Source of the DNA: a virus
Taxonomy: Duplodnaviria > Heunggongvirae > Uroviricota > Caudoviricetes
DNA length: 64,000 nt
IMG/VR virus record: IMGVR_UViG_3300046786_000272
Coordinates: 14,062 to 78,061 of that record
Reading direction: 5' to 3' (one strand)
Shown: piece after piece, positions 1 through 52,024 of the stretch
How the letters are laid out: every line of letters begins with the position of its first letter
Position numbering within the stretch: the first letter of the stretch is position 1
The notes under the pieces: generated by a model
What the model was told of the DNA's origin: nothing
Databases searched by the model: none
The model's input: only the letters and a program-made list of their open reading frames with translations
Position numbers and translations under genes: made by a program

Positions 1-470
1 CAAATAAACACCACATTACTGGAAAAGCACTGCATGATTTATTTGTTAAAAAGTTTAAAAGAACTCCTGATGATTGGGTCAAGGGAAAACTTGACGAAAC
101 TGACGATGAGCCTTCTTCTGAGATTGAAGATGAAGTAAACAAGTTTGCTCAATGGACAGGTAAAAAATTAAATCTAAAAAACATCCCTAAGATTGAGTTG
201 AGTTATGATACCCAAGACGCACAAGACAATCATCATACAGGTAGACACGTTACCGGTGGTGGAGATATTTGGGTTTATGTAAAGAATCGTAATCTAGTTG
301 ATATATTACGCACTGTATTTCACGAATTGGTTCATGTTCGCCAAGATGAGTTGAACATGATTAAACCTGGATCAAGCTATCCTGGTAGCCCAATCGAAGC
401 TATGGCTGATATGCTTGCGGGCAAGTATATCAAGATTTACGGCGAAAAGAACCATCACATCTTTCAATAA
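1..470 (+). CDS. 5'-truncated CDS; hypothetical protein with HExxH (HELVH) metallopeptidase-like motif
   Basis: Frame 3 is open from window start through the listed ORF 198..470. Motif FHELVHVRQDE. Confidence 0.5.
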   Translation, partial: NKHHITGKALHDLFVKKFKRTPDDWVKGKLDETDDEPSSEIEDEVNKFAQWTGKKLNLKNIPKIELSYDTQDAQDNHHTGRHVTGGGDIWVYVKNRNLVDILRTVFHELVHVRQDELNMIKPGSSYPGSPIEAMADMLAGKYIKIYGEKNHHIFQ

Positions 471-496: not shown

Positions 497-1090
497 ATGA
501 TTAAGATTTTAGTCCCTTTACCCAAAAAGATTACTATTGCTTGTAGCGGTGGTGTTGATAGTATGGCTGTCGTTGACTTTCTTAAACGAAAGCATGATGT
601 GACGATTGCATACTTCAATCATGGAACTAAACACGGTAGTGAGGCAATGATGTTTGTGGGAAAGTATTGTGCTGATAACAATATTCCCATGATGTACGGG
701 CAATGTCGTAGTGAAAAGGGTGAAAAAGAATCACAGGAAGAATATTGGCGCAGAGAACGATATGACTATCTGAGTGAATTGGGGCCGGTCATTACATGTC
801 ATCACTTAGACGATTGTATAGAAACATATATCTGGTCTAGTCTGCATGGTACTCCTAAAGTCATCCCACTCACACGCAATAACGTGCTTAGACCTTTTCT
901 AACTACACGTAAACAAGAATTTATTTCTTGGTGTGAGCGCCACAATGTATCTTGGATCGAAGACACTTCAAACAAAGACACAAAATATATGCGTAACTAT
1001 GTTCGCAACGAACTAATGCCTCACGCATTGCATGTTAATCCAGGTCTTCACAATGTAGTCAAACGTATTGTTGAAAACAAATCACAATGA
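497..1090 (+). CDS. PP-loop ATPase, TilS (tRNA(Ile)-lysidine synthetase) N-terminal-domain-like; lacks the C-terminal tRNA-binding domains
   Basis: SGGVDS PP-loop; CHHLDDCIETY and SWIEDTSNKDTKYMRNYVRNEL resemble the TilS HHLDDQ.ET / WxEDxSN / RN motifs; only 197 aa. Confidence 0.65.
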   Translation: MIKILVPLPKKITIACSGGVDSMAVVDFLKRKHDVTIAYFNHGTKHGSEAMMFVGKYCADNNIPMMYGQCRSEKGEKESQEEYWRRERYDYLSELGPVITCHHLDDCIETYIWSSLHGTPKVIPLTRNNVLRPFLTTRKQEFISWCERHNVSWIEDTSNKDTKYMRNYVRNELMPHALHVNPGLHNVVKRIVENKSQ

Positions 1091-2659: not shown

Positions 2660-2926
2660 ATGTCAGACTATAACCGCACTTTCAATAACGAAGCAAAAAT
2701 CAAACTAACACAACTTATCAATGAGGGCATGACTGTAATGCATGAGATTGATACATTGAATGGTGGCTTGAACGACACTATTAAAGCAGTTGCAGAAGAA
2801 TTGGAAATCAAAGCTTCAACATTGAAGAAGGCAGTACGCATTGCACACAAAGCATCATTGGGTCAAACAAATAAGGACCATGATGAACTCAACACCATCT
2901 TGGAGACAGTTGGTAAGACTCTATGA
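2660..2926 (+). CDS. hypothetical protein (88 aa)
   Basis: ORF with AAGGAG RBS; its stop overlaps the start of the next gene. Confidence 0.55.
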   Translation: MSDYNRTFNNEAKIKLTQLINEGMTVMHEIDTLNGGLNDTIKAVAEELEIKASTLKKAVRIAHKASLGQTNKDHDELNTILETVGKTL

Positions 2927-5637
2927 GTTATATTGATGCGATTCACAGTAGAGATGAGGATCGTATTTATGTAGTTGAGAGGGATACTGCCGGCAAACGG
3001 CAGTATAAAGAATTCCCGACTAACTACGTATTCTATTATGCTGATCCTAAGGGTAAGCACCGTAGCATTTACAACGATTCGGTATCTAGATTCAGTACAC
3101 GAAAGCGTACTGAGTTTGAGAAAGAACGTAGGATTCATCATGGCAAGAAATTGTTCGAGAGTGATGTTAACGTTGTATTCCGTTGTCTAAGTGAAAACTA
3201 TTTAGGTGTTGATGCCCCTAAACTACACACATGCTTTTTCGACATTGAAGTAGACTTTGATCCTGAGAAAGGCTTCAGTCCTACAAGTGATCCATTCAAT
3301 CCTGTAACAGCGATTAGTTGTTACTTAGATTGGCTAGATCAATGTGTTACTCTAGTCATTGCGCCTAAGCATATGTCTAAAGAAACGGCGAATGAGATTG
3401 TCAGTGAGTTTGAAAACACTATGCTATTCACAAATGAGAAGGACATGTTTGATGTGTTCTTTCAATTGATTGAAGATGCAGATGTGTTAACTGGTTGGAA
3501 CTCAGAAGGCTATGATATTCCATACATGGTCAATAGAGTTACACGTGTCATGTCGAAAGATGATACTCGCAAGTTCTGCTTGATGGGTCAATTGCCTAAG
3601 CCAAGAGAATACGAACGATTCGGCAAAGTTGAAATGACATATGACTTAGTAGGTCGTATTCACATGGACTATTTACAGTTGTACAAGAAGTATAACTATG
3701 AATCACGACACAGTTACAAACTAGATTCTATCGGTGAGATGGAAGTAGGTGAGAACAAAACACAATATGAAGGTACACTTGACCAGTTGTATAACAAAGA
3801 CTTTAAAAAGTTTATTGAATACAACAGACAAGATACAATGCTTTTAGTGAAGATTCACAACAAGCTTAAGTTTTTAGAGTTGGCAAATCAACTAGCACAC
3901 GAGAATACTGTACTGCTTCCAACAGTTATGGGTTCAGTGGCTATGATTGAAATGGCTATTATGAATGAATCGCACGAGCGAGGATTAGTTGTTCCAGATA
4001 AAAAACGAAAGGTTGAAGATGCAGATGAAATCCAGCAAGCGGCAGGTGCCTTTGTTGCTACGCCGAAACGAGGCATGCACGAATGGGTCGGAGCAGTTGA
4101 CATTAACTCGCTCTACCCCTCGGTTATTCGTGCCCTTAACATGGCCCCAGAAACAATCGTTGCTCAAGTCAGACAAACACTCACTGACCAGTACATGAAA
4201 GAAAAGGGACTCAAACTTGCAATGGAGAAAAAACGTTACAAGGATGGGGACGATGCGGTTGAAGGTGCTATCTTATGGGAAGGATTGTTTGGTGCATTAG
4301 AGTACACAGCAATCATGAGCCAAGAACGTGGTACTATCTTAACTGTAGACTTTGAAGATGGTCGCACTGTGGAAATGAGTGCGGCAGAAGTATGGAAGAT
4401 GATTTTTGATAGTCATAAGCCTTACATGTTATCAGCAAATGGTACAATCTTTACTTACGAGAAAGAGGGTGTGATTCCTGGTCTATTGACTCGTTGGTAC
4501 TCAGATCGTAAGACGATGCAGAAGAAACTAAAAGAAGCTACAACTGATAGTGATAAAGAGTATTGGGATAAGCGTCAATTAGTTCGTAAGATTTTACTTA
4601 ACTCAGCTTACGGTGCGTTGTTGAATGAACACTGTCGTTTCTATGATAAGCGTATCGGTCAAAGTGTTACATTGAGTGGTCGTCAGATTGTTAAACACAT
4701 GATGAGCCAGATCAATCAAACTGTTGCAGGTGAGTATTCACATGAAGGTGAAGCTATTGTATATGGAGATACTGACTCATGTTATTTCTCTGCGTACAAA
4801 ACATTGAAGCCTCAGATTGAATCTGGTGAGTTATCTTGGGACAAAGAGTTGTGCATTGGGTTGTATGATTCAATCGCAGACGAAGCTAATGATAGTTTCC
4901 CAGCATTCATGGAGAAAGCATTTCATGCTCCTCGTAAGAATGGTGAGATTATCAAAGCTGGTCGTGAATTGATCGGTGATCGTAGTATCTTTATCACGAA
5001 GAAGCGTTATGCTATCAACATCTTTGACAAAGAGGGCAAGCGCAAAGACAAAGATAAACCTGGTGATATCAAAGCTATGGGTCTTGACTTGAAACGTGCT
5101 GATACACCTAAGTATGTGCAAGAGTTCTTGTTAGAAGTTCTCAGTATGGTTATTCAACATGGTAAACAACGTGATGAAGTCATTGAGAAGGTAAAAGAAT
5201 TCAAACGTGTACTAGCCGCACAAGACAGTTGGACTAAAGGTTCTCCTAAGGGTGTGAACAAGCTTACATACTACGGTGATCTTGAAGCTAAGAGTGCATC
5301 AGGCAAAGCAAACATGCCTGGTCACGTTCGTGCGGCATTGAACTACAATTACTTGCGTAGAGTAAATGGAGATCAATATAGTCAGAAGATTGTTGATGGT
5401 ATGAAGGTAATCGTTTGTAAGTTAAAACCTAATCCCTTAGGATTTACAAGTGTTGCTTACCCAACTGATGAACTACGATTGCCTCAATGGTTCTGCGAGT
5501 TACCATTCGATGATAAAGAAATGGAAAAGACTCTAGTTGACGAAAAGATTGACAACTTACTGGGCGTGTTAGATTGGGATATTCGTTCTAACACAGATAC
5601 AAATTCAACGTTTGATGATTTATTCACATTCGGTTAA
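2923..5637 (+). CDS. Family B DNA polymerase (T4 gp43-like) with 3'-5' exonuclease domain
   Basis: Exo I motif FFDIEVD; KILLNSAYGAL (KxxxNSxYG); YGDTDS catalytic motif. 904 aa. Confidence 0.92.
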   Translation: MSYIDAIHSRDEDRIYVVERDTAGKRQYKEFPTNYVFYYADPKGKHRSIYNDSVSRFSTRKRTEFEKERRIHHGKKLFESDVNVVFRCLSENYLGVDAPKLHTCFFDIEVDFDPEKGFSPTSDPFNPVTAISCYLDWLDQCVTLVIAPKHMSKETANEIVSEFENTMLFTNEKDMFDVFFQLIEDADVLTGWNSEGYDIPYMVNRVTRVMSKDDTRKFCLMGQLPKPREYERFGKVEMTYDLVGRIHMDYLQLYKKYNYESRHSYKLDSIGEMEVGENKTQYEGTLDQLYNKDFKKFIEYNRQDTMLLVKIHNKLKFLELANQLAHENTVLLPTVMGSVAMIEMAIMNESHERGLVVPDKKRKVEDADEIQQAAGAFVATPKRGMHEWVGAVDINSLYPSVIRALNMAPETIVAQVRQTLTDQYMKEKGLKLAMEKKRYKDGDDAVEGAILWEGLFGALEYTAIMSQERGTILTVDFEDGRTVEMSAAEVWKMIFDSHKPYMLSANGTIFTYEKEGVIPGLLTRWYSDRKTMQKKLKEATTDSDKEYWDKRQLVRKILLNSAYGALLNEHCRFYDKRIGQSVTLSGRQIVKHMMSQINQTVAGEYSHEGEAIVYGDTDSCYFSAYKTLKPQIESGELSWDKELCIGLYDSIADEANDSFPAFMEKAFHAPRKNGEIIKAGRELIGDRSIFITKKRYAINIFDKEGKRKDKDKPGDIKAMGLDLKRADTPKYVQEFLLEVLSMVIQHGKQRDEVIEKVKEFKRVLAAQDSWTKGSPKGVNKLTYYGDLEAKSASGKANMPGHVRAALNYNYLRRVNGDQYSQKIVDGMKVIVCKLKPNPLGFTSVAYPTDELRLPQWFCELPFDDKEMEKTLVDEKIDNLLGVLDWDIRSNTDTNSTFDDLFTFG

Positions 5638-11779: not shown

Positions 11780-12460
11780 ATGAGTTATAATAAAACAAAA
11801 ACAGATCCAGCATTGGGTCAACGAGTGCATGAGCACTTAGTCAAAATGGGAGTCGAAACCCCTACATTTCAAACATCAATGGATCGTAAAGATAAGATAG
11901 CAGAGATTGAAAAGTCTTTCAGTCATATCATGCAAGTCTTGGGACTTGATTTAGAAGATGATAGTCTTATGGAAACACCCAAGCGTGTTGCTAAGATGTA
12001 TGTCAATGAAATCTTTTGGGGTCTAGATTATGAAGCTTTTCCAAAGTGTACAACCGTTGATAATAAGATGCAGTATAATGAAATGGTCGTGGAACGTAAT
12101 GTTAACGTCCAAAGTAACTGTGAACATCACTTTGTCGTTATTGACGGCCTCGCTACTGTGGCATATGTTCCTAAGCAAAGAGTCCTCGGACTATCTAAAA
12201 TCAATCGAATCGTGGAATACTTTTCTAAGCGACCACAGATTCAAGAGCGTCTTACTGAACAAATCTTTCACACCCTACAGTTCATCCTTGATACAGAAGA
12301 CGTTGCAGTTATGATTGACGCACAACACTATTGCGTTAAGAGTCGAGGTGTAGAAGATACAGGTAGTTCAACTGTTACTTGTCGCTTAGGTGGTGGTTTC
12401 AAAACTGACCCTGCGGCACGACAAGAGTTCTTGCAGATTGCAAACAAGGGTTGCAAATGA
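11780..12460 (+). CDS. folE: GTP cyclohydrolase I
   Basis: NCEHHFVVIDG (CEHH zinc motif), 226 aa, FolE-like throughout. Confidence 0.85.
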   Translation: MSYNKTKTDPALGQRVHEHLVKMGVETPTFQTSMDRKDKIAEIEKSFSHIMQVLGLDLEDDSLMETPKRVAKMYVNEIFWGLDYEAFPKCTTVDNKMQYNEMVVERNVNVQSNCEHHFVVIDGLATVAYVPKQRVLGLSKINRIVEYFSKRPQIQERLTEQIFHTLQFILDTEDVAVMIDAQHYCVKSRGVEDTGSSTVTCRLGGGFKTDPAARQEFLQIANKGCK

Positions 12461-12894
12461 GTGAAATTATTGAAGATACTATCAGTAGAAATAAAAAATT
12501 TCAAGAAGAAAGAACTCGCAGATTAAAAAGAATGCGAGAACTTAAAGCACCTGATATCATAATTCAAACTGAAGAAATGATATCAAAAATGACTATAGCG
12601 GAATATAACATCTTCTGTCAGCAAGCCGATCAAGAAGATAAAAAAATTAAAGCAGAATACGCTAAAAATAATCCCATTCAAAAACATATAGTTGATGAAA
12701 TTTATGATAGGGAAAGCAAACTCTCTTATACTTTCCTTACTTACTCATCTACTGTACAGTGGACGATGGCGATTAATCCTTTGAGTTTTATGAGTGCAGA
12801 TGATTACTATAATGATTTGTATCAAACTTTTTTAGACCATGCCCAAGAACTTTATCAAAAGAGATTCAAAGAACAATGGGAAGCTGACCAATGA
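12451..12894 (+). CDS. hypothetical protein (147 aa)
   Basis: ORF in series with neighbours. Confidence 0.5.
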   Translation: MQMSEIIEDTISRNKKFQEERTRRLKRMRELKAPDIIIQTEEMISKMTIAEYNIFCQQADQEDKKIKAEYAKNNPIQKHIVDEIYDRESKLSYTFLTYSSTVQWTMAINPLSFMSADDYYNDLYQTFLDHAQELYQKRFKEQWEADQ

Positions 12895-12957
12895 ACTTAC
12901 TAATTTTATTAATCGTAGTTGCAGTCGCTGTAACAATCATTCGTAGATTGCCAAAGA

Positions 12958-13257
12958 GTGATTGTACAGGTGATTGCAATCAAGGACGTAACTGTGACTG
13001 CAAAAATAAACAGTCTTAATATGACTCCTGAAGAGGCCCAAGCTTTCATTAGAAAGATAATGGGACCTCCCAAACGAGTATTAGAAGGTACCGAACGTGA
13101 GCACATGCTAACTGTGTTGCGTTTGGTTGAACCTATTAGGTCAACGAATAATCAACGTTCATTCACTGATGAATATGTACATGCTGGAAAGATGTATGAT
13201 GTTCATTACTTTGAAGGTGAAACTGTAGTGGAGGAATATTTAGATGAGGAATCTTAA
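12958..13257 (+). CDS. hypothetical protein (99 aa)
   Basis: ORF. Confidence 0.45.
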   Translation: MIVQVIAIKDVTVTAKINSLNMTPEEAQAFIRKIMGPPKRVLEGTEREHMLTVLRLVEPIRSTNNQRSFTDEYVHAGKMYDVHYFEGETVVEEYLDEES

Positions 13258-13435
13258 ATTAATTGATGCAGTGGTAGCATTGCATGAAATAAAGAGATTA
13301 GTGGAAGAAGAATGTGGTATCTGTAGAGTAAGTATAGAGATAGAACGATGTGCTAACCAACTACATGAAATGTCATTGCAAGATGCAAAGAATAGTATAA
13401 TTGCAGGACAAGTTATTCAGAAAGCTAAAGAATGA
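13244..13435 (+). CDS. hypothetical protein (63 aa)
   Basis: ORF overlapping its neighbours by a few nt. Confidence 0.4.
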   Translation: MRNLKLIDAVVALHEIKRLVEEECGICRVSIEIERCANQLHEMSLQDAKNSIIAGQVIQKAKE

Positions 13436-13902
13436 TTTTCAATCATGTTAAAAAACTTAAACAAGAAGGCAAGAGAATTGGCATCACGTTTAGTACGTTC
13501 GATATGTTACATGCGGGACATATTGCTATGCTTAGTGAAGCGAAGAATCACTGCGATTATCTTATTGCAGGACTTCAAACAGACCCTACAATCGACCGTC
13601 CAGACACTAAAAATAAACCTATTCAAAGTATTGTGGAACGTCAAATCCAACTGGCTGCGTGTCGTTACGTTGACGAAGTGGTTGTGTATAGTACAGAGCA
13701 GGACCTCGCTGATCTCTTACTCATACTTCCGGTGGATGTCAGAATCCTTGGTGTTGAATATGCCGATACAGAGTTCTCGGGTAAAAGTGAGTGCGAACTC
13801 AGATCCATCAGTCTTGTCTTTAATGGTAGAGATCACTCCTTTAGCTCCAGTAGCCTACGTAAACGTGTCTATGATAGTGAAACCAAAAAGCGAGGACAAT
13901 AA
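13432..13902 (+). CDS. Cytidylyltransferase-family nucleotidyltransferase (RfaE-II/TagD-like)
   Basis: GITFSTFDMLHAGHIAMLSEAK HxGH motif; 156 aa. Confidence 0.7.
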   Translation: MIFNHVKKLKQEGKRIGITFSTFDMLHAGHIAMLSEAKNHCDYLIAGLQTDPTIDRPDTKNKPIQSIVERQIQLAACRYVDEVVVYSTEQDLADLLLILPVDVRILGVEYADTEFSGKSECELRSISLVFNGRDHSFSSSSLRKRVYDSETKKRGQ

Positions 13903-14204
13903 TGAGTAATTTTTACAATTCGTTCATGAGTAAATACCGTGTCAAACATGTGCAGGTAGTTCGTGACCGCAATTTTGAGACTATCAATTACAGTTACAAT
14001 CAATCTGCTAGTTATTACGCTGATCGTGAAGAACTTATTGAAATGGAACTCACACGTAGTGGATTTGAAGATTTGGTCAAGATGGATCGTGAGTATGACA
14101 ACATATGGCAAGACCAGCGTGATGAAGCATACTTGCGTAGAACGTACCCTGCAGTAGCAGAAGCATATAGTAAATATCGTATGATGTTAGAACTGTACAA
14201 ATAA
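13902..14204 (+). CDS. hypothetical protein (100 aa)
   Basis: ATGA overlap. Confidence 0.5.
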   Translation: MSNFYNSFMSKYRVKHVQVVRDRNFETINYSYNQSASYYADREELIEMELTRSGFEDLVKMDREYDNIWQDQRDEAYLRRTYPAVAEAYSKYRMMLELYK

Positions 14205-14213
14205 AAAGAAGAT

Positions 14214-15236
14214 ATGCTAAAAAAGAACGTATACATATTATATCCTGCAGGATACTACGGAACATATGTTAATTGGGCAATAAACATTTCGGATTCTGAT
14301 AGGGCTAAAGAAACAGTACTTGATCCTATCAATAGAGAGAAAAGTGATGAGTATGGTGGGGTAGGTACTAGCCACTTACATACAAAGATTCCAACTCATC
14401 AGGGACCAATGAGTCACTTTATGTGGGTAATGTATAACAAGCCAGTTGATACTAGGATATATAATATCAATATGGGCGCAGATACTTTGCCCCCTCTAGA
14501 AAAGACAATCTCAATATTATTAAACTCTGACCCCGACCCAACAATCATTGTTATCCATGACAACAGTGAAATGGACATGATAAATTTCGGGACCATCAAT
14601 GCTATAACAAAATGGCCTACTCAGTTTGCTATTAGGGCAATATACGAGCTATTTGGTCCTGATAAGAAATTGTATAAGTTTGATCCATTCAACTGTGCTG
14701 ATGATATAAATTTTAGAAACTTAATAGTTGAGCACCACTCTATACTGACTAGAAGGAACAATCCGATCAATCACGCAACGTTGAAGAACTTTGTCAATAT
14801 GGAAGACTCTTGGTACAGAATAAGAAATAAACTTCAACCGCATGAGATAAACGAAGAAACTTACATAAATCCACAAACATATGTTATGGATGACAAGTAT
14901 AAGTCAAACATTTTTGAACTATCTTGCTTAAATGTAGTCACACCACAATTTCCAGACATTCTTGAAAATATATTAAATTTATCTAAACTCAGTGATTCTT
15001 ATGATACAAGTCAGGTAAGAACTATACACCAATCTTTCATTGACTCACAACCCAATCTCAAGTGGTTTGATTCTATAAACAATTGGAGAGAAACAGGAGT
15101 TTTGGATAAATATCTACTTTCCCATTCATGCATACAGGGCATGGTTCTTAAAGAATTACTAGAAAAGAATGCCAATTTAAAAGATACTATAGATTGGAAA
15201 ACAATGTCTTTAGAAGATATTAACCAATTTTGGTAA
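14214..15236 (+). CDS. hypothetical protein (340 aa), AT-rich gene
   Basis: Long ORF; lower GC than the flanking genes. Confidence 0.55.
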   Translation: MLKKNVYILYPAGYYGTYVNWAINISDSDRAKETVLDPINREKSDEYGGVGTSHLHTKIPTHQGPMSHFMWVMYNKPVDTRIYNINMGADTLPPLEKTISILLNSDPDPTIIVIHDNSEMDMINFGTINAITKWPTQFAIRAIYELFGPDKKLYKFDPFNCADDINFRNLIVEHHSILTRRNNPINHATLKNFVNMEDSWYRIRNKLQPHEINEETYINPQTYVMDDKYKSNIFELSCLNVVTPQFPDILENILNLSKLSDSYDTSQVRTIHQSFIDSQPNLKWFDSINNWRETGVLDKYLLSHSCIQGMVLKELLEKNANLKDTIDWKTMSLEDINQFW

Positions 15237-15313
15237 ATACAATAGCGGCCTTGGCTTCATCCCGCTTTACAAACTCTGCCAGCCTATGCTATAATTAACA
15301 TAGGAGAAAAAGC

Positions 15314-15817
15314 ATGTCATTACAACCAGTCAGTTATAAATTTACAAGTACTAAAGAGTACCACGATTCATTCCCTTGCGCTTATCGCCAATGGAGAGCA
15401 GATAGTCACTGCAATATGATTCACGGTTACAGTTTCAGTATGAAGTTCTATTTTGGTACAAACGACCTAGATGTTCGCAATTGGGCGGCAGACTATGGTG
15501 GACTAAAAGAATTGAAAAAGATTCTTGAGGATCAATTTGACCACACATTACTAGTCGCACAAGACGATCCCGAACTTGAAACATTCAAGATGCTACAAGA
15601 AAAGAAATTAGCTAAACTAACTATTCTTCCACGAATCGGTTGCGAGAGTTTAGCAGACATGCTTTACAAGTATGTCAATGGCGTTTACATCCCTGACATG
15701 TGGGGTCAAGGTGAAGCAGAACGTCTATGGTGTTATCGTGTAGAAGTACGTGAGACACAAAGCAACATGGCTTTCCGTGAAGGTCATCGTGAATGGAATG
15801 AGGATTTGCTTGCGTGA
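15314..15817 (+). CDS. queD: 6-carboxy-5,6,7,8-tetrahydropterin synthase (QueD / PTPS family)
   Basis: HCNMIHGYSF resembles the QueD CxxxHGH zinc motif; PTPS-like length and context with FolE/QueE. Confidence 0.65.
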   Translation: MSLQPVSYKFTSTKEYHDSFPCAYRQWRADSHCNMIHGYSFSMKFYFGTNDLDVRNWAADYGGLKELKKILEDQFDHTLLVAQDDPELETFKMLQEKKLAKLTILPRIGCESLADMLYKYVNGVYIPDMWGQGEAERLWCYRVEVRETQSNMAFREGHREWNEDLLA

Positions 15818-16578
15818 ATGATGTTAAGCAATTAACAATAGCAGGTTCATCTATACTTATTCCCTGGACATCTCAATACAAAGAACTGCTTTTCTTTCAA
15901 GCAGTTCCTAGAGATAATAGAACGATAGACGATATAGATGAAGATGCTAGAATAGCTAAACTAAAACGTAGATTCGAATACACATTGAATCCTCTATTAG
16001 AAACTTTAGCAAAACTTCCAGTAGGTGCTACTATACTGGACATAGGCGCCGGCAACAGTTTAATAGACGTAATCATTAATGCAAAGTTTCTAGATAAAAA
16101 ATTTAAATTTATTTTAGTAGACGAAGATAATACATATCCACCAAAGGATCCTAGTAATGAATTCTACAAAAATGATTATACGACATATAATGATTGGTTC
16201 TTTATTGAGAAATTAGTAGAAGTCAATAATATGGATATCAACTCATTTACAAAAAAATTACCTGAAGCTGATTGGTCCGATACCCCAGTTGATTTAGTAA
16301 TTTCATCAGCATCATGGGGATGGCATTATCCAATTGATACCTATTTAAATAAAACACATACTGTATTGAAAGACAGTGGTTATTTGTATATCAGTGAGGT
16401 ACTCAACGTTGATGACTCACTTGAAAAACTATCTAATATATTTAAACCGATTAATGTGACTATGAGTAAGTTTTCACCTACCCAATCACTAATCGAAAAC
16501 AAGAGAGTTCTAGTTTTTGTAGTTGCTAATAAGATGGATGTTCGTAAATTTGCATTTATATTCTTAGGACAAAAATAA
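15814..16578 (+). CDS. Class I SAM-dependent methyltransferase-fold protein
   Basis: ILDIGAGNSLIDVI motif I (GxGxG) about 70 aa from the N-terminus; ATGA overlap with queD. Confidence 0.5.
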   Translation: MNDVKQLTIAGSSILIPWTSQYKELLFFQAVPRDNRTIDDIDEDARIAKLKRRFEYTLNPLLETLAKLPVGATILDIGAGNSLIDVIINAKFLDKKFKFILVDEDNTYPPKDPSNEFYKNDYTTYNDWFFIEKLVEVNNMDINSFTKKLPEADWSDTPVDLVISSASWGWHYPIDTYLNKTHTVLKDSGYLYISEVLNVDDSLEKLSNIFKPINVTMSKFSPTQSLIENKRVLVFVVANKMDVRKFAFIFLGQK

Positions 16579-16580
16579 CT

Positions 16581-17663
16581 GTGCAGTTTGTACTAAAATC
16601 AGAAAGTGACTATAAAAGACCAGAGTCGTATTTAAAAGACTTTGGATGTTTTAGAATATCACGTTACTTGGAAATTCATACTAACGGGGACGTAAGTATA
16701 TGCTGTCATTCTTGGTTACCTGAATTTTGCGGTAATATACTCACTGATACAGTTGAAGATATTCTTAATAATTCTAATAGGCTGTCTATGATAAAAGACA
16801 TGGACAGTGGAGAATTCACTAATTGCAATGACCATTGTCCGTTTATTAGTGCTATGCTTTCTGGTAAACAAGAATCAGTTAATTTCATAGTACCACTACG
16901 TGCATTACCCTTTCACAAGAAGAACAAGCCGCTAGTGATTAACTTTAGTTATGACCAGTCGTGTAACTTACAATGCCCTAGCTGTAGAAATTCTTTAATA
17001 CTTCATAAAGTAGGAGAGAATAACTTGTTAGTTAGAGTTCATGCAGGGGTAGAAAAACTAGTTGATTATCTATTATCACAGGGTGAAAATCTTGTTTTGA
17101 ATATTACTGGCAGCGGTGATGCTTTTGCTAGCCCCACATATTGGCAGTATTTAAAAACACTATCAACTAAAAATATAGGAGCTAATCTCCAAATCAAATT
17201 GATGACTAACGGTATCTTAATGACTGAAGCACGATGGAATGATATAAAGCCGTTATGGAATAATATTACTCACATAGGGGTAAGCATTGATGCGTTTACT
17301 AATGAAACTTACTCAAAGATAAGAGTCAATGGATCTAAAGCTACACTAGATAAAAATTTAAAAATTCTCAATGAACTCATTAAGAATAAAAGCTTTACAA
17401 GATTAACAGGTTGGCAAACTAACTATACTGTGCAAAAAGATAACTACAAAGAGCTTATAGATTATGTTAATTGGCAACTGTCATATGACCAACTGTCAAC
17501 TATATTTTTTAACTGTATAGATCAATGGGGTCATTTGAATGACATGACATTCAACCAATTAAATATAAATCAAGAAGACAAACTACTATTAAAAGAAATA
17601 TTATCTAACGACATTTTTAATAATAAAAAAGTAATGTTAGGGAACCTAAACTCATTTAGATAA
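16581..17663 (+). CDS. Radical SAM enzyme with atypical N-terminal Cys-rich extension
   Basis: CNLQCPSC (CxxxCxxC) near residue 128; additional N-terminal cysteines (ICCHSW..FCGN..CNDHCPF); GTG start. Confidence 0.55.
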   Translation: MQFVLKSESDYKRPESYLKDFGCFRISRYLEIHTNGDVSICCHSWLPEFCGNILTDTVEDILNNSNRLSMIKDMDSGEFTNCNDHCPFISAMLSGKQESVNFIVPLRALPFHKKNKPLVINFSYDQSCNLQCPSCRNSLILHKVGENNLLVRVHAGVEKLVDYLLSQGENLVLNITGSGDAFASPTYWQYLKTLSTKNIGANLQIKLMTNGILMTEARWNDIKPLWNNITHIGVSIDAFTNETYSKIRVNGSKATLDKNLKILNELIKNKSFTRLTGWQTNYTVQKDNYKELIDYVNWQLSYDQLSTIFFNCIDQWGHLNDMTFNQLNINQEDKLLLKEILSNDIFNNKKVMLGNLNSFR

Positions 17664-17671
17664 GGCATATT

Positions 17672-18847
17672 ATGAACAAAACAACAAAAAATGTAGCAGT
17701 GATCGGTGCAGGCATCACTGGCATCACCACAGCATATTATCTTGCTAAACAAGGTTATCAAGTAACTGTCTACGAACAAGAACCACATGCGGCAATGCGT
17801 ACTAGCTTTGCTAATGGTGGTCAAGTATCAGTAAGCAACAGTGAAGTTTGGACTACATGGAGCAACGTCAAGAAGGGCATTAAGTGGCTCTTTAAGAAAG
17901 ATGCCCCATTACTGATTCGTCCTCGCTTAGACTTTAAGCAATGGAAGTGGATCGCTAAGTTCTTGTATAACACTGCTACCAATCAGTATGAAAAGAATAC
18001 TAGCGAAACAATCAAGATGGGTCTGGAGTCTAGTAAATTGTACAAAGAAATTATGTACACTGAGAAACTAAGTTTTGACCAATCACCATCGGGTATTCTT
18101 CACTTCTATAAAGATGAACAATACTTTGAGGCTGCGAAACAAGCACAATATATCTATCGTAAGAATGGTTGTGAGTGGGATATTGTTGATACCCAACGAG
18201 TTAAAGAACTAGACAGTACACTAGAGAACGTTGAAGGTATTGTCGGTGGTGCTTGGACATTGAGTGATTGGACAGGTGACATTCACAAGTTTTGTATTGA
18301 ACTTGAAAAAGTATTAGTAAAAAAATACGGTGTAGTGTTTAACTATAATTGGAAGATCAATCATATTGAAGAAGTTTCATTCTATGATGCTGTAGTGATT
18401 TCGAATGGTGTAGGTAGCACTCAATTAGCAAAGACGGTAGGAGATAGTATTGATGTTTATCCCGTAAAAGGATACAGCATCACTATCAATAATGTAGATA
18501 AGAAACATCTACCTGTAGTCAGTCTGTTAGATGACCAAGCTAAGATTGTTACAAGTAGTTTGGGTAATCGTTTTCGTGTTGCGGGTACTGCTGAACTAGC
18601 GGGTGAGAACTATGATATTCGTCATGACCGTATCAAACCATTACTTGATTGGGTAAGAACTAACTTCCCAAACATGAGCACACATGATTATACTAGCTGG
18701 GCATGTCTCAGACCAATGACTCCTAATATGATGCCTATTACCAAAAGAAGTGACAAGAACAGTAAAGTATATTATAATACAGGACACGGGCACTTAGGCT
18801 GGACCTTAGCACCATATACAGCAAAACTTATTTCGGAACAAGTATGA
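17672..18847 (+). CDS. FAD-dependent oxidoreductase (DAO / glycine-D-amino-acid oxidase family)
   Basis: VAVIGAGITGITTAYYLAKQGYQVTVYE dinucleotide-binding fold; 391 aa. Confidence 0.75.
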   Translation: MNKTTKNVAVIGAGITGITTAYYLAKQGYQVTVYEQEPHAAMRTSFANGGQVSVSNSEVWTTWSNVKKGIKWLFKKDAPLLIRPRLDFKQWKWIAKFLYNTATNQYEKNTSETIKMGLESSKLYKEIMYTEKLSFDQSPSGILHFYKDEQYFEAAKQAQYIYRKNGCEWDIVDTQRVKELDSTLENVEGIVGGAWTLSDWTGDIHKFCIELEKVLVKKYGVVFNYNWKINHIEEVSFYDAVVISNGVGSTQLAKTVGDSIDVYPVKGYSITINNVDKKHLPVVSLLDDQAKIVTSSLGNRFRVAGTAELAGENYDIRHDRIKPLLDWVRTNFPNMSTHDYTSWACLRPMTPNMMPITKRSDKNSKVYYNTGHGHLGWTLAPYTAKLISEQV

Positions 18848-19692
18848 GTCATTTAAAAATATCAGAGTTATTTTACAGCATTCAAGGTGAGGGTAAATTC
18901 ATGGGAGTTCCCTCTGTGTTTTTACGAACATATGGATGTAATTTTACATGCGGTGGATTCGGCATGCCTAAAGGAGAATTGAGTAGTGAGAGAGATGTTA
19001 TTGCGATTAAAGCAGAAGATTATACAGATTATAAATCCTTACCACTTGTCAGTACGGGCTGTGACTCTTATGCATCTTGGGACCCTGCTTTTAAACACCT
19101 TAGTCCTGTTCTCGATACCGATGTTATTGCTGACAGCATTGTTAGTACACTTCCTAGAGGTCGTTGGATGGATGAGCACTTGGTTATCACGGGCGGTGAA
19201 CCTCTTCTTGGATGGCAAAGAGCGTATCCAGACTTACTTTCACATGAAAAAATGAAAAGTCTTAAAGAGATGACGTTTGAAACGAACGGCACTCAGCGCA
19301 TCAGTGAAGAATTTGGTAAATACTTGCATCAATGGCAACGCAACAGAGCAAAAGACGCTATCACATTCAGTGTCAGTCCTAAACTCAGCATTAGTGGTGA
19401 GAAGTGGGAAGAAGCAATCTGTCCTGATATAGTATCTCATTATAAACAATATGGCTTTGTTTACTTGAAGTTTGTTGTTGCAACTAAGGAAGATGTTAAA
19501 GAAGCTGAACAAGCAGTTGACGAATATCGCAAACGAGGTTTTACAGGTCCTGTGTATTTGATGCCGTGCGGTGGTGTTGAGAGTTTGTATAGCTTGAATG
19601 CACGTAATGTAGCAATCGAAGCAATGAATAGAGGATGGCGTTACAGTGATAGATTGCAAGTGCCGTTGTTTAAAAATGAATGGGGAACATGA
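18844..19692 (+). CDS. queE: Radical SAM 7-carboxy-7-deazaguanine synthase (QueE)-like
   Basis: FLRTYGCNFTCGGFG cluster region, QueE-like size, position in the FolE/QueD context; motif is a variant. Confidence 0.55.
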   Translation: MSHLKISELFYSIQGEGKFMGVPSVFLRTYGCNFTCGGFGMPKGELSSERDVIAIKAEDYTDYKSLPLVSTGCDSYASWDPAFKHLSPVLDTDVIADSIVSTLPRGRWMDEHLVITGGEPLLGWQRAYPDLLSHEKMKSLKEMTFETNGTQRISEEFGKYLHQWQRNRAKDAITFSVSPKLSISGEKWEEAICPDIVSHYKQYGFVYLKFVVATKEDVKEAEQAVDEYRKRGFTGPVYLMPCGGVESLYSLNARNVAIEAMNRGWRYSDRLQVPLFKNEWGT

Positions 19693-23433: not shown

Positions 23434-23988
23434 TTAAAGGCTCTTACCCCAACGAGTATTAATTACATTCCAGTTAATAATCTTCCACTGTTCTTTTAAG
23501 TATTTCTTTTTGTCAGAACCGTAATCTAACATGAATGCATGTTCCCACCAATCTACTAATAGTAGAATGTCGTTGCGAACTTCATGGTTCTTTATTGTTT
23601 TAATCTTACCATCAGTTGCTAAGTATATCCAACCACTACCTTGAATCTTCATTGCTTCTTCTTCAAACAGCGACTTCATACTATCATATGAACCAAAATG
23701 TTTGTTGATAAAGCCCATCATAGGACCGTTTGGTTTGTTAGTGTTTCGTACTTCACGGAACTGAGGGAATAACATGTTATGCAAGAATGCGCCTGCATAG
23801 TTAAAGTCTCTGTCTCCCTCTTTCTTATTATATCTTTCAGCATAACCATGCGCCAACTTGCCGTAGTGTAAGTCCAATGTCTCTTTAGATAGTACAGGAC
23901 TTACTTCTTTTGGCTCAAAGTTAAGCTGAATGATTTCTATATCTTGAGGTTTACTCTTCTCCTCAAGTAGCTGAATTAAGTCACGCAT
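23434..23988 (-). CDS. Fe/Mn superoxide dismutase-like
   Basis: LDLHYGKLAHGYAERYN and LLLVDWWEHAFMLDYG resemble the SOD HHxKHH and DVWEHAYY motifs. Confidence 0.55.
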   Translation of the reverse strand: MRDLIQLLEEKSKPQDIEIIQLNFEPKEVSPVLSKETLDLHYGKLAHGYAERYNKKEGDRDFNYAGAFLHNMLFPQFREVRNTNKPNGPMMGFINKHFGSYDSMKSLFEEEAMKIQGSGWIYLATDGKIKTIKNHEVRNDILLLVDWWEHAFMLDYGSDKKKYLKEQWKIINWNVINTRWGKSL

Positions 23989-26059: not shown

Positions 26060-26088
26060 TTGACTTTATTGCGTAGGTATGCTACACT
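26060..26088 (+). promoter_or_regulatory. sigma70-like promoter TTGACT-17-TACACT
   Basis: TTGACT 26060-65, TACACT 26083-88, upstream of the uvdE-like gene. Confidence 0.45.
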
Positions 26089-26117
26089 ATATCTATTATT
26101 TATCACTTTGGTCTACT

Positions 26118-27140
26118 ATGCACTCTTTTGACATTACTACTAAACGTATCGGTTTTGCTTGCAAATTCGCTGAAATTAACAAAAAAGGCGAGATTGCTTC
26201 CGTCGAAGGTCTCAACACAGGAGGCACTACAATGGCATGGGCAAAGCGTAACAAGCGTGACGTTGTAGAACAAAAAATCATTGATGTAGCAAAAAGTAAC
26301 ATTCTTGCTACACATGCACTTGTCAAAAAAGTTGCAACACTAGAACCCGAACTGCGTATGGTTCGTATCACAAGTGACATGTTCAGTTTCTACACACATG
26401 ATGACTACAAAGACTTCTGGCAATCAAATGATGTTCAATCTAATCTAGCACGTTGGATGGCACCGATCGGTGAAACAGCACGACAAAACAATGTTCGTCT
26501 TTCGTTTCACCCTGACCAATTTGTAGTTTTAGCAAGCGACCGTGAAGAGGTAGTAAATAAGAGTATCGAAGAATTTGAATATCATGTTGACATGGCAAAA
26601 TTTATGGGCTTTGGTAAACAGTTTCAAGATATCAAAATCAACGTACACATTTCTGGTCGCAAGGGTCCTCAGGGTATCAGAGATGTATTTGGTCGACTAT
26701 CACCTGAGGCACGTAACACACTAACACTCGAAAATGAGGAATACACACATGGACTATCTGACTGCTTATCATTATCTGACCTCGTCCCTACGGTCTTGGA
26801 CATTCACCATAATTGGATTCGTGAGGGAACCTATATTGACTGTAATAGTGACCTTGCTAAAAAGGTTATTGATAGTTGGCGCGGCATTCGCCCTACTATC
26901 CATTACAGCGTATCTAGGGAAGATGTACTTGTTGGCCATTCCGGATCACAGCTACCCGATCATGGTGCGTTGATTGCTGAAGGATACAACAAACAAAAGT
27001 TGCGGGCACACAGTGACTACTTCTGGAATGATGCAGTTAACGATTGGGCATTGACATTTCGTGATAACTTTGATATCATGTGTGAGGCTAAGGGTAAGAA
27101 CTTAGCAAGCTTCAAACTACTTGAACATGCCAAACGATAA
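26118..27140 (+). CDS. uvdE: UV damage endonuclease (UvdE/UVDE family)
   Basis: RLSFHPDQFVVL, KINVHISG, TLTLENEE, DIHHNWI match the UvdE signature blocks (RLSMHPGQF / KINIHVGG / RLTLENDD / DYHHHW). ATG 26118 chosen because the ATG at 26079 lies inside the promoter. Confidence 0.75.
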   Translation: MHSFDITTKRIGFACKFAEINKKGEIASVEGLNTGGTTMAWAKRNKRDVVEQKIIDVAKSNILATHALVKKVATLEPELRMVRITSDMFSFYTHDDYKDFWQSNDVQSNLARWMAPIGETARQNNVRLSFHPDQFVVLASDREEVVNKSIEEFEYHVDMAKFMGFGKQFQDIKINVHISGRKGPQGIRDVFGRLSPEARNTLTLENEEYTHGLSDCLSLSDLVPTVLDIHHNWIREGTYIDCNSDLAKKVIDSWRGIRPTIHYSVSREDVLVGHSGSQLPDHGALIAEGYNKQKLRAHSDYFWNDAVNDWALTFRDNFDIMCEAKGKNLASFKLLEHAKR

Positions 27141-44339: not shown

Positions 44340-46184
44340 ATGAGCAAAGTAATCGGTATCGACCTCGGTACAACCAATTCATGTGTAGCCGTTATTGAGA
44401 ACGGAATCCCCAAAGTTATTGAAAACAGTGAAGGTGCTAGAACTACACCCTCTATCGTTGCCTATGCAAACGATGAAATCTTAGTCGGTGCAAGTGCTAA
44501 ACGACAAGCTGTTACTAATCCAAAGAATACTATCTATGCGGCTAAACGTCTAATTGGACGTAAGTTCAAAGAAGACGCTGTACAAAAAGATATTGACTTG
44601 ATGCCCTACAAAATCGTTGAAGCAGGTAACGGTGATGCATGGGTTAAGGTAGGTGATAAGGATCTTGCACCTCCCGGCATCAGTGCAGAAGTCTTGCGTA
44701 AGATGAAAACAACCGCAGAAGATTATCTCGGCCATGAAGTTACTCAAGCTGTTATCACAGTTCCTGCATACTTTAACGATAGTCAACGTCAAGCAACTAA
44801 AGACGCAGGTAAGATTGCGGGTCTTGAAGTATTGCGTATTATTAATGAACCAACAGCGGCAGCATTGGCATATGGTGTTGACAAACAAGACAAGACAGAC
44901 CGCAAAGTTGCAGTCTATGACTTAGGTGGTGGTACATTTGACGTTTCTATCATTGAGATTGCTAACGTTGATGGTGAAAAACAAATTGAAGTACTATCTA
45001 CAAATGGTGATACATTCTTAGGTGGTGAAGACTTTGACCAACGCATCATGGATTTCTTGGTCGATGAATTCAAGAAAGAGTCAGGAGTTGACTTGAAGCA
45101 AGATATGCTTGCATTGCAACGACTGAAAGAAGCTAGTGAAAAAGCTAAGATTGAATTGTCTAGTTCTCAACAAACTAGCGTCAACTTGCCGTACATCACT
45201 GCTGATGCAACTGGTCCAAAGCACATGAACGTTAGTATCAATCGTGCAAAGCTAGAACAGTTGGTTGAAGAGTTGATTCAACGAAGTGTCGGACCTTGCA
45301 AAACAGCAATGAAAGATGCTGGTGTTAGTGCTAGTGATATTGACGAAGTTATCTTAGTCGGTGGTATGACACGTATGCCTAAGGTACAGGAGACAGTTGA
45401 AAAATTGTTTGGTAAGCAACCTCGCAAAGACGTTAACCCTGACGAAGCGGTTGCCGCAGGCGCCGCAATTCAAGGTGCAGTGTTGAGCGGTGATCGTAAA
45501 GACGTATTGTTGCTAGACGTTACTCCACTATCATTGGGTATCGAAACAATGGGCGGTGTAATGACTAAGTTGATTCAGAAGAATACAACTATCCCCACAA
45601 AGCATTCACAAGTGTTTAGTACCGCTGATGACAATCAACCTGCAGTTACTATTAAGGCTTATCAAGGTGAGCGTGAGTTTGTTCAACATAATAAGTTGTT
45701 GGGTGAGTTTAACTTGGAAGGTATTGCACCAGCACGCCGAGGCACACCTCAGATTGAAGTTACACTTGATATTGACGCAAACGGTATCATGCATGTATCA
45801 GCTAAAGACAAGAATACAGGCAAAGAAAACAAGATTACTATCAAGAGTAATAGTGGATTGACTGATGCAGAAATTGAGCAAATGATTAAAGATGCTGAAT
45901 TGAATGCAGAAGAAGATAAGAAGAAGCGTGAAATCGTAGAGACTAAAAACTCCGCTGAATCACAGATTCATTCTATCCGCAAAGACCTTGAAGAAACTAC
46001 TGTTTCCCAAGATGTTAAAGATAAGATTGAACAAGCTATTACAGAAGTTCAAACTGCTATCAGCACTGAGGATAAGGAACAGATTACCCAAAAGTTGAGC
46101 GAGTTGTTTGTTGCGGCACAACCATTAATGGAAGCTAAAAACAAACCTTCTGACGAAACGGTAGTTGATGCCGAAGTAGTATAA
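44340..46184 (+). CDS. dnaK: Molecular chaperone DnaK (Hsp70)
   Basis: [23 protein letters not shown], 614 aa, bacterial-DnaK-like throughout. Confidence 0.95.
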
Positions 46185-50827: not shown

Positions 50828-52024
50828 ATGTCAAATGAAAATAAACTAAACCATTGTTCCTTTTGTGGTAACCACAAAGATATAGTAAAGAAACTTATCG
50901 TAAGTGATAACGTTGCTATTTGCAGTGACTGCATTGAACAATGCACTCAACTTATAACTGATGACAGTTCTGTAGTAGAGTCAGAAGGACCCAAACAAAA
51001 CTACGATCCATCTGATATCAAGAACTTCTTAGACTTGCACATCATTGGTCAAGACCATGCTAAAATGGTTCTTAGCGTAGCAATCGCTAATCATTATAAA
51101 CGAATCACACATCCCCCTAAAGATTTAGAAATTCAAAAGGGTAATGTATTGTTGATTGGGCCTACTGGTAGCGGTAAGACATTGCTTGCTAAAACAGTAG
51201 CAAAGTACCTTAACGTTCCTTTCGTAGTAGCTGATGCAACTAGCTTGACAGAAGCAGGTTACGTAGGTGATGACGTTGAATCTATGATTAGTATGCTTCT
51301 CACTAACGCCGGCGGTGATGCTAAACTAGCAGAAAAAGGTATTGTTTTCATTGATGAAGTTGATAAGATTGCACGTAAAGGTGAATCCGCAAGCTTGACA
51401 CGTGATGTATCAGGTGAAGGTGTTCAACAAGCATTGTTGAAATTAGTTGAGGGCACGGTATGTCGTGTGCCAGCAGGTGGTGGCAGAAAGCATCCATCAG
51501 GTGAAATGATTGAAATCAACACAAAAAATATCTTATTCATTGCAGGTGGTGCATTTGTTGGCTTGAAAGATATTATCTCTAGTAGACATTCAGGATCTAG
51601 TATTGGATTTGGTGCAGAGATTAAAGACAAGAAAAAAGAAGGTGACTTGGGTCTAGTATCACCTGATGACCTCACTAAGTTTGGTATGATTCCTGAATTG
51701 ATCGGTCGTTTTACTACTGCGGTTAGTGTAGCAAACTTGACCAAAGAAGAACTTATCAAGGTACTTACTTCTGTTAAAAATAATTATATTGACCAATATA
51801 AGTATTTGTTTAGTATCGACCAGATTGATTTGCAATTCAGCGATGATGCATTAGAACAAATGGTTGACAACTGTATGAAGTTGAATACTGGTGCTCGTGG
51901 ACTTCATACTGAGATTGAACGTGCTTTGATGCCGCACATGTACAATACTAAGAAGTATCGTGAAAGCGAAATCAAAGTGGTAAATATTACACAAGCGGGT
52001 GTAGTAGAACCAAAAGCACTGTAA
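50828..52024 (+). CDS. clpX: ATP-dependent Clp protease ATP-binding subunit ClpX
   Basis: N-terminal C4 zinc finger CSFCGNHKD..CSDCIEQC; Walker A GPTGSGKTLLAKTVA; ClpX-like throughout. Confidence 0.9.
   Translation: MSNENKLNHCSFCGNHKDIVKKLIVSDNVAICSDCIEQCTQLITDDSSVVESEGPKQNYDPSDIKNFLDLHIIGQDHAKMVLSVAIANHYKRITHPPKDLEIQKGNVLLIGPTGSGKTLLAKTVAKYLNVPFVVADATSLTEAGYVGDDVESMISMLLTNAGGDAKLAEKGIVFIDEVDKIARKGESASLTRDVSGEGVQQALLKLVEGTVCRVPAGGGRKHPSGEMIEINTKNILFIAGGAFVGLKDIISSRHSGSSIGFGAEIKDKKKEGDLGLVSPDDLTKFGMIPELIGRFTTAVSVANLTKEELIKVLTSVKNNYIDQYKYLFSIDQIDLQFSDDALEQMVDNCMKLNTGARGLHTEIERALMPHMYNTKKYRESEIKVVNITQAGVVEPKAL

Follow-up and report, generated by a model that had tools for sequence, protein, structure and literature searches.

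Near the start of a 64,000-nucleotide stretch of phage DNA (positions 14,062 to 78,061 of the IMG/VR virus record IMGVR_UViG_3300046786_000272, hereafter the window), an open reading frame (ORF) of 197 amino acids was found that probably codes for a domain-minimal but functional tRNA(Ile2) lysidine synthetase (TilS), a reading to which a probability of roughly 0.7 is given. Judged by its catalytic domain the protein classifies as a TilS. It is treated here as a viral variant and not as a standard member of the family, since both C-terminal domains of characterized TilS (CTD1 and CTD2) are absent and its activity is predicted only. These C-terminal domains are thought to be needed to separate tRNA-Ile2 from tRNA-Met, as both tRNAs share the CAU anticodon. 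Hence, a large and selected virus-borne family made of the catalytic domain only, often in a cassette with its own CAU tRNA, makes two questions testable: what the minimal machinery for lysidine synthesis is, and how discrimination is achieved without reading the tRNA body. The family also provides a concrete case for large phages bringing their own decoding apparatus for A/U-ending codons. Virus-encoded TilS genes are already known (MIJ3/PA5oct, RsoM2USA, and the chloroviruses), and JGI pipelines label the present family as TilS. Neither the N-domain-only family nor the TilS-tRNA(CAU) cassette was found described in the literature, although this search was incomplete and an earlier description is possible.

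The ORF is ATG-initiated and, on direct reading, contains the motifs SGGVDS, HHLDDCIETY, and WIEDTSNKDTKYMRNYVRNEL (Table 1). Its product was spanned end to end by the PP-loop family PF01171 of Pfam (profile positions 1-182 of 182, E 4.5e-33) and by the NCBIfam model TIGR02432 "lysidine_TilS_N" (positions 1-189 of 189), with a score of 121.4 bits, where the curated cut-off is 93.6. NF007942, the NCBIfam equivalog for full-length TilS, scored 63.8 bits against a cut-off of 606, which is expected for a protein that ends after the N-domain. At E<=0.1, PF01171 was the only Pfam family detected, and the protein terminates at residue 197, leaving neither CTD1 nor CTD2; in the alignment with the TilS of Aquifex aeolicus, the aligned part of 1wy5 ends at residue 227 of 317. 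Sequence matches among solved structures were to TilS only (1wy5, 1ni5, and 3a2k, with E from 5e-15 to 1e-9). A Foldseek search with an AlphaFold2 (AF2) model placed TilS structures at ranks 1 to 4 (E 4e-11 to 8e-8), followed by TtuA and LarE. These results agree with a preliminary description of the stretch, which had recognized TilS and not QueC signatures in the 197-residue protein and had noted the missing C-terminal tRNA-recognition domains; no QueC features were found. A TtcA/TtuA-type PP-loop tRNA thiolase, a type likewise covered by PF01171, was also considered and rejected, as the corresponding models reached only 13-15 bits against cut-offs of 272-450, TtuA ranked under all TilS in Foldseek, and the six cysteines of the protein (positions 16, 58, 70, 101, 107, and 146) form no CxxC motif, which in these thiolases holds an Fe-S cluster or zinc.

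Table 1. Positions of the minimal TilS gene, its motifs, and other features discussed in the text (window coordinates).
Feature	Position	Strand	Description
HExxH protein, 3' part	1-470 (ORF listed 198..470)	+	Cut by the window start; HELVH motif
Minimal TilS gene	497..1090	+	Stand-alone TilS N-terminal (PP-loop) catalytic domain, 197 aa
SGGVDS, residues 17-22	545..562	+	PP-loop, ATP pyrophosphatase motif
HHLDDCIETY, residues 102-111	800..829	+	TilS "HHxxDxxET" motif
R132-P133	890..895	+	Aligned with A. aeolicus R167-P168, the Arg-Pro pair invariant in TilS
WIEDTSNKDTKYMRNYVRNEL, residues 153-173	953..1015	+	TilS "D.SN ... RNxxR" motif
B12-binding radical S-adenosylmethionine (SAM) protein, 515 aa	1082-2629	-	PhpK-like P-methyltransferase family, 74 bits, far under cut-off
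FolE	11780..12460		
PTPS/QueD-like	15314..15817		
QueE-like	18844..19692		

Conservation was assessed in 134 short-family sequences (the window protein and 133 representatives) aligned with the N-domains of three solved TilS (A. aeolicus, E. coli, and G. kaustophilus), where identity across the three structures served as the yardstick for catalytic residues. Nearly every position identical in the three was conserved at 0.9 or above in the short family. Positions at this level included SGGxDS, H42, R85, R88 (aligned with A. aeolicus R113), D106, E109, G118, R132-P133, D156, N159, R166, and R170. Specifically, the PP-loop residues S17, G18, G19, D21, and S22, identical in the three solved TilS, were conserved at 0.93-0.96, and H102, D106, and E109, which align with A. 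aeolicus H133, D137, and E140, at 0.98-0.99. Values of 0.97 and 1.0 were obtained for R132 and P133. The residues D156, N159, R166, N167, and R170 correspond to A. aeolicus D191, N194, R201, N202, and R205, which are identical in the three structures; four of them were conserved at 0.95-0.99, while N167 was lower at 0.75. Lower values were also found for H103 (0.78), which aligns with A. aeolicus H134, and for K139 (0.84), a conservative lysine replacing the third arginine (A. aeolicus R174). Residues conserved in the short-family alignment and specific to it comprised P9, F28, T44, E81, W84, F134, and N181-P182-G183. Among 33 close relatives of the window protein, the TilS catalytic residues were invariant.

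The short form is widespread. More than 1500 clusters at 90% identity matched the window protein at E<=1e-5, and the best 120 of these were mostly 196-198 aa in length (range 191-206), with the same start methionine and the same end; many carry the JGI name "tRNA(Ile)-lysidine synthase". A search of 1.84 billion representatives clustered at 50% identity yielded 194 clusters at E<=1e-30, and the best 150 of these representatives had a median length of 206 aa, with almost all between 190 and 230 aa. Comparisons with close relatives indicated purifying selection, with a ratio of nonsynonymous to synonymous substitution rates (dN/dS) of 0.06-0.10, where dS was saturated in some pairs. A single-protein, pattern-based search of one genome per GTDB species returned one short homologue, on a 15.7-kb scaffold of a metagenome-assembled genome, and one distant match; within the limits of such a search, the family thus appears to be essentially viral.

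These data bear directly on whether the gene is an inactive remnant of a captured bacterial tilS. The protein has under half the length of cellular TilS and lacks the domains on which known enzymes depend for efficient catalysis, as a decaying copy might. However, the low dN/dS, the invariant catalytic residues, and the more than 1500 matching clusters of the same length effectively refute this explanation. Moreover, the stop codon is followed by the convergent radical SAM gene in the window, or by a small DsbA-like ORF in relatives, and no displaced C-terminal part of TilS was found 3' of it. The short TilS is a stable, selected, and widespread architecture and no product of decay, given at least 150 clusters of about 200 aa, the strength of selection, and the conserved active site. 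The preliminary description had called the protein truncated, which holds for its short, N-domain-only extent but not in the sense of a remnant.

Compared with cellular TilS, the window protein most resembles the type II enzymes, composed of an N-domain and CTD1. The A. aeolicus protein (1wy5/2e21/2e89, 317 aa) has the same PP-loop N-terminal fold, shares SGGxDS, HHxxDxxET, RP, D.SN, and RNxxR, and was the best match by both sequence (E 4.8e-15) and fold (E 3.9e-11), though at an identity of just ~29%. The window protein differs from it in having no CTD1, which makes the anticodon-stem contact, and in the loop before the Arg-Pro pair, which has 13 residues instead of 17. With type I TilS (N-domain, CTD1, and CTD2; E. 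coli 1ni5 and G. kaustophilus 3a2k), it shares the catalytic domain and presumably the chemistry, while it is without both C-terminal domains, which read the tRNA body and acceptor stem and aid catalysis (PMC11947777).

Outside the lineage of the window, the genomic context of the short-TilS family strongly supports a tRNA as its partner. For the main count, IMG/VR loci outside this lineage were ascertained by protein and dereplicated at 80% identity, giving 25 groups (individual loci are cited by L numbers). A tRNA(CAU) gene was located within 200 nt of the short TilS gene, on the same strand and with gaps of 15-135 nt, in 10 of the 25 groups, and within 2.5 kb in 13, while any tRNA within 10 kb was found in 21. 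The only other tRNA within 200 nt was tRNA-Leu(UAA), in just two of the 25 groups; at loci L241 and L243, a tRNA-Leu(UAA) lies directly downstream of the short TilS. Of the 12 adjacent tRNAs, 10 had the CAU anticodon, which accounts for ~5% of all other tRNAs across these loci (binomial p ~1e-11, with groups that are not fully independent). Loci with a same-strand tRNA(CAU) at 15-135 nt included L082, L085-087, L104, L227, L229, L236, L238, L248, L264, L267/272/273, and L269, and six more loci had one at 0.9-2.1 kb from the short TilS. The TilS proteins of these divergent loci were 42-54% identical to the window protein. The association also held in reverse, in 120 + 120 loci drawn from the matches listed in IMG/VR pattern scans: a short TilS was present in 24 of the 120 loci picked by an Ile2-like tRNA(CAU) pattern, nearly always adjacent, compared with one of the 120 control loci picked by another CAU-tRNA pattern (Fisher p 4.8e-7). 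No protein neighbor of the short TilS recurred in more than six of 38 groups, leaving the tRNA as the only recurrent partner. Together with the conserved active site, this adjacency strongly supports, at the level of the family, the earlier suggestion that such a protein modifies a phage or host tRNA.

Two further genes were observed near these cassettes. In locus L104, a tmRNA gene (L104:5308-5609, tag ANNDIEFEDYALAA) lies upstream of the TilS-tRNA cassette at a distance of 4.4 kb, and locus L248 includes a CUA-anticodon, amber-suppressor-like tRNA ~1.9 kb downstream of TilS.

Most of the adjacent tRNAs look like the Ile2 type, by an argument from similarity and not a formal isotype call. For example, in 5,426 E. 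coli genomes, the best matches of the tRNAs from L104 and from phage MIJ3 were RefSeq tRNA-Ile features with a CAT anticodon. Most adjacent tRNAs were nearer to these E. coli tRNA-Ile(CAT) than to metT (elongator) or metZ (initiator), and none carried the 1:72 mismatch of initiators. Some loci included CAU tRNA genes of 83-88 nt with a long, class II-like variable arm (L085:9896-9981, L084:5180-5262, L248:10034-10121, and L237:12461-12544), which adjoin or lie near short TilS genes. These had no BLAST match in E. coli; local alignment was weakly Leu-like, and the D-arm of L237 was close to that of tRNA-Leu. If such tRNAs were charged by leucyl-tRNA synthetase, a recoding of AUA would be implied.

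This diversity raises the question of whether the enzyme combines TilS-type chemistry with a relaxed or different specificity, acting on any CAU tRNA including the host elongator tRNA-Met (as a form of takeover or reprogramming), on the odd long-arm phage tRNAs, or with an amine other than lysine. The domains that give discrimination against tRNA-Met are absent from the window protein, and removal of CTD2 is known to relax the specificity of TilS (PMC11947777). The class II-like CAU tRNAs with Leu-like D-arms, along with the tRNA-Leu(UAA) at L241 and L243, point in the same direction, as the varied bodies of the adjacent tRNAs suggest that the body matters little; the loop adjacent to the active site is also shorter than in solved TilS. 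On the other hand, most adjacent tRNAs resemble the ordinary Ile2 type, a wholesale conversion of tRNA-Met would hurt phage translation too, and every residue that is identical across the lysine-using TilS structures is kept. A relaxed or altered specificity is considered unlikely.

A dedicated tRNA(Ile2) lysidine synthetase would work as follows. In the established mechanism of TilS, ATP is bound at the PP-loop and used to adenylate C34 at C2, after which lysine attacks (PMC12069591, PMC11947777). As the relevant residues are retained in the window protein, the SGGVDS PP-loop would bind ATP-Mg, adenylation would take place at the C2 carbonyl of cytidine 34 of a tRNA with the CAU anticodon, and the epsilon-amine of lysine, or of a closely related amine, would displace AMP. 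The lysidine product would switch the tRNA from AUG/Met to AUA/Ile. With neither C-terminal domain of cellular TilS present, the enzyme would have to recognize its tRNA by the anticodon arm only. For most lineages, a two-gene cassette made up of the enzyme and its own tRNA(CAU) is proposed, where the adjacency fits a co-evolved pair, while the substrate in the lineage of the window would be a tRNA encoded elsewhere in a genome of ~350-520 kb or the tRNA-Ile2 of the host. The benefit to an AT-rich phage would be the decoding of AUA. The GC content of the window is 38.6%, and AUA occurs in it at 13 per 1000 codons, or 19% of the isoleucine codons, a usage in line with the codon-bias argument made for chlorovirus TilS (PMC7589089).

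Several observations weigh against this reading. Every biochemically studied TilS has at least CTD1, which, together with CTD2 in type I, reads the anticodon stem and acceptor stem; deletion of CTD2 alone greatly cuts activity, and substitutions in CTD1 lower it further (PMC11947777). The loop from G118 to R132 has 13 residues compared with 17-21 in solved TilS, so that the amine or the mode of tRNA binding could differ. The AF2 model is of moderate confidence (pLDDT 74.5), and residues 118-124 of this loop fall below a pLDDT of 50. No activity measurement of a viral TilS was found in the literature, where the MIJ3 and chlorovirus papers only hypothesize a role. Additionally, ARAGORN identified no tRNA gene in the 64-kb window, where no Rfam family was found either, and none within 10 kb of the short TilS in 40 close relatives, so that the substrate tRNA of this lineage can only be inferred. 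Two IMG/VR scans for CAU-tRNA patterns likewise had no contig of the lineage among the matches listed. Finally, its lineage keeps the gene fixed within the replication module, which is not a translation context.

The last point follows from the gene order in 80 close relatives, in which an HExxH protein, sometimes an insert, the short TilS, a DsbA-like ORF of 88 aa, the DNA polymerase, and a clamp-like protein succeed one another. The spot upstream of the DsbA-like ORF, polymerase, and clamp is also kept in a sister lineage at 57-59% identity. Such a position, in the ~80 close relatives and the sister lineage, together with the missing tRNA within 10 kb, could suit a modifier that acts outside translation by adenylating the cytosine C2 in DNA, in the nucleotide pool, or in another RNA. 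However, the same family is elsewhere tied to tRNA(CAU) and not to replication genes, and the lineage of the window keeps the family consensus at conserved sites. As is known from lysidine, substitution at C2 shifts the pairing of cytosine from G to A, and a 2-substituted cytosine would thus be mutagenic in a genome. A role outside translation is accordingly regarded as very improbable.

The window is a piece of an uncultured, very large myovirus-like phage, which we take, from the IMG sample series, to be probably of freshwater origin. Its first 6,000 nucleotides had no DNA-level relative among 50,697 phage records (megablast). The size of the phage is indicated by its family-B DNA polymerase (2923..5637), which shares 44-50% identity with the polymerases of several jumbo phages (Phosso, Atu_ph07, RaK2, and 121Q), and by related contigs, as IMG/VR contigs with 77-82% identical copies of the ORF reach 249, 349, and 525 kb. 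Members of the lineage include IMGVR_UViG_3300032323_001214 (249,606 bp), IMGVR_UViG_3300023174_000038 (348,701 bp), and IMGVR_UViG_3300027749_002876 (524,565 bp). A further contig, IMGVR_UViG_3300017917_001342 (518,643 bp; L227 and L407), shares with the window a QueD (81-84%), a ClpX (48%), and a 544-aa protein. It encodes a short TilS with 50% identity to the window protein in a cassette with a tRNA(CAU), as well as a separate cluster with three CAU tRNAs, one of which is a 98.7% identical copy of the cassette tRNA. An exact-match scan with the L227 tRNA recovered only this phage group. By analogy with the cassette and separate cluster of this contig, it is plausible that the phage of the window has a similar tRNA cluster beyond the 64 kb analyzed.

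Homologues in public genomes placed the short TilS in further tRNA-rich settings. The gp263 of the Pseudomonas jumbo phage PA5oct/MIJ3 is, like the window protein, a stand-alone N-domain (203 aa, 39% identical over the full length). In MIJ3, its gene lies downstream of a 12-tRNA cluster, at a distance of 10 kb; two Ile2-like CAU tRNAs and an initiator-like tRNA are among the members of this cluster. The gene was reported as TilS by the MIJ3/PA5oct authors, who left its role open (PMC6892783). These phages belong to another family, and in MIJ3 the TilS is 10 kb from a tRNA cluster, whereas the window gene adjoins that of the DNA polymerase and the 64 kb hold no tRNA. Homologues with 47% and 45% identity are encoded by the megaphages LR756502 and LR745206 (~640 kb each), located inside arrays of 25 and 13 tRNAs within 10 kb, respectively. 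A tRNA-Ile(UAU), which offers another way to read AUA, is also part of these arrays (LR756502.1 386298-406876, L400; LR745206.1 364005-384583, L401). A putative TilS is encoded in 39 of 41 chlorovirus genomes, where it was proposed to offset a host codon bias against AUA (PMC7589089), and the same proposal was made for the putative TilS of the Ralstonia phage RsoM2USA (PMC8504454). The latter differs from the window protein in being longer (349 aa) and matches just residues 81-194 of it.

The preliminary description had also raised the possibility that the PP-loop domain is repurposed to fill a missing QueC step, in which it would adenylate the carboxylate of the 7-carboxy-7-deazaguanine (CDG) made by FolE, QueD, and QueE, towards preQ0 or an amide derivative. 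The genes for FolE and for the QueD-like and QueE-like proteins are indeed present in the window, and neither QueC nor DpdA/TGT was recognized in it, so that the observation of a missing QueC stands. The SGGxDS of the ORF at 497..1090 is the sole occurrence of this motif in the six frames of the window, FolE is kept downstream in close relatives, and a lone QueD-like gene lies ~5 kb from the short TilS in two other groups. Nevertheless, the link from the absent QueC to the TilS-like protein did not hold, as profile, fold, and synteny were all against it. While membership of the PP-loop ATP pyrophosphatase superfamily and the SGGxDS motif are common to QueC and the window protein, QueC has zinc-binding cysteines and its own profile outside the PP-loop. 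The window protein lacks the C-terminal zinc-binding cysteine cluster (CxxC...C) and matched no QueC family in Pfam or NCBIfam at E<=0.1; a QueC-like match in PHROG (E 3.7e-4) was confined to the PP-loop, at residues 10-49. A better fit to QueC than to TilS was looked for and not found, with QueC at Foldseek ranks 43 and 48 (E ~0.015-0.02) and TilS far ahead at 4e-11, and the TilS-specific residues beyond the PP-loop are strongly constrained.

Regarding synteny, a distance of 10.7 kb, with the replication genes in between, separates the gene from FolE, and the gene shows no synteny with FolE, QueD, and QueE. In both groups where a QueD-like gene is close by, a tRNA(CAU) also lies 15-20 nt from the TilS gene, and none of the fetched cassette loci had FolE or QueE within 10 kb. 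No QueC was found beside the QueD of the related 518-kb contig. Furthermore, the apparent gap requires no substitute, since known phages combine FolE, QueD, QueE, and DpdA in the absence of QueC and make the 7-deazaguanine derivatives dDG or dCDG (PMC10516641). A substitute for QueC is thus highly unlikely, and a tempting but unsupported tie between the TilS-like gene and the 7-deazaguanine genes is removed for the window. The 7-deazaguanine-type cluster itself (11780-19692) comprises FolE, a cytidylyltransferase-like protein, a 340-aa ORF, the QueD-like protein, a SAM methyltransferase, a radical SAM protein with SPASM, an FAD (DAO) oxidoreductase, and the QueE-like protein. The cluster may yield a derivative of the CDG or DG type, or else a novel one, and its 340-aa and 360-aa proteins had no match among solved structures.

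A broader scenario, improbable as a whole, would combine several of these elements. In this scenario, an enzyme reading only the anticodon loop would have co-evolved with dedicated phage tRNAs, some of them Leu-like and class II, to provide private, host-independent AUA decoding, and in some lineages perhaps AUA reassignment or host tRNA-Met conversion. The lineage of the window might then have a second, non-tRNA substrate, a suggestion that stems from the position of its gene, apart from its tRNA and in the replication module of a phage that has FolE, QueD, and QueE but no QueC.

Returning to the immediate neighbors of the domain-minimal lysidine synthetase gene, a search for a trans-acting protein able to stand in for the missing C-terminal domains gave no candidate, with no neighbor recurring in more than six of 38 groups. 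The HExxH protein (189 aa in the relative L001) keeps its place upstream of the short TilS, though inserts often come between the two. The radical SAM gene converges on the stop codon of the TilS gene with an overlap of 9 nt. It was considered as a functional partner and rejected, as it occurs at this site in just seven of the 80 relatives and hence represents a sporadic accessory insert. Elsewhere in the window, a full-length DnaK/Hsp70 (44340-46184, Pfam E 1e-259), a ClpX with a zinc finger (50828-52024), a UvdE UV-endonuclease (26079-27140), and an Fe/Mn superoxide dismutase on the minus strand (23434-23988) were also identified.

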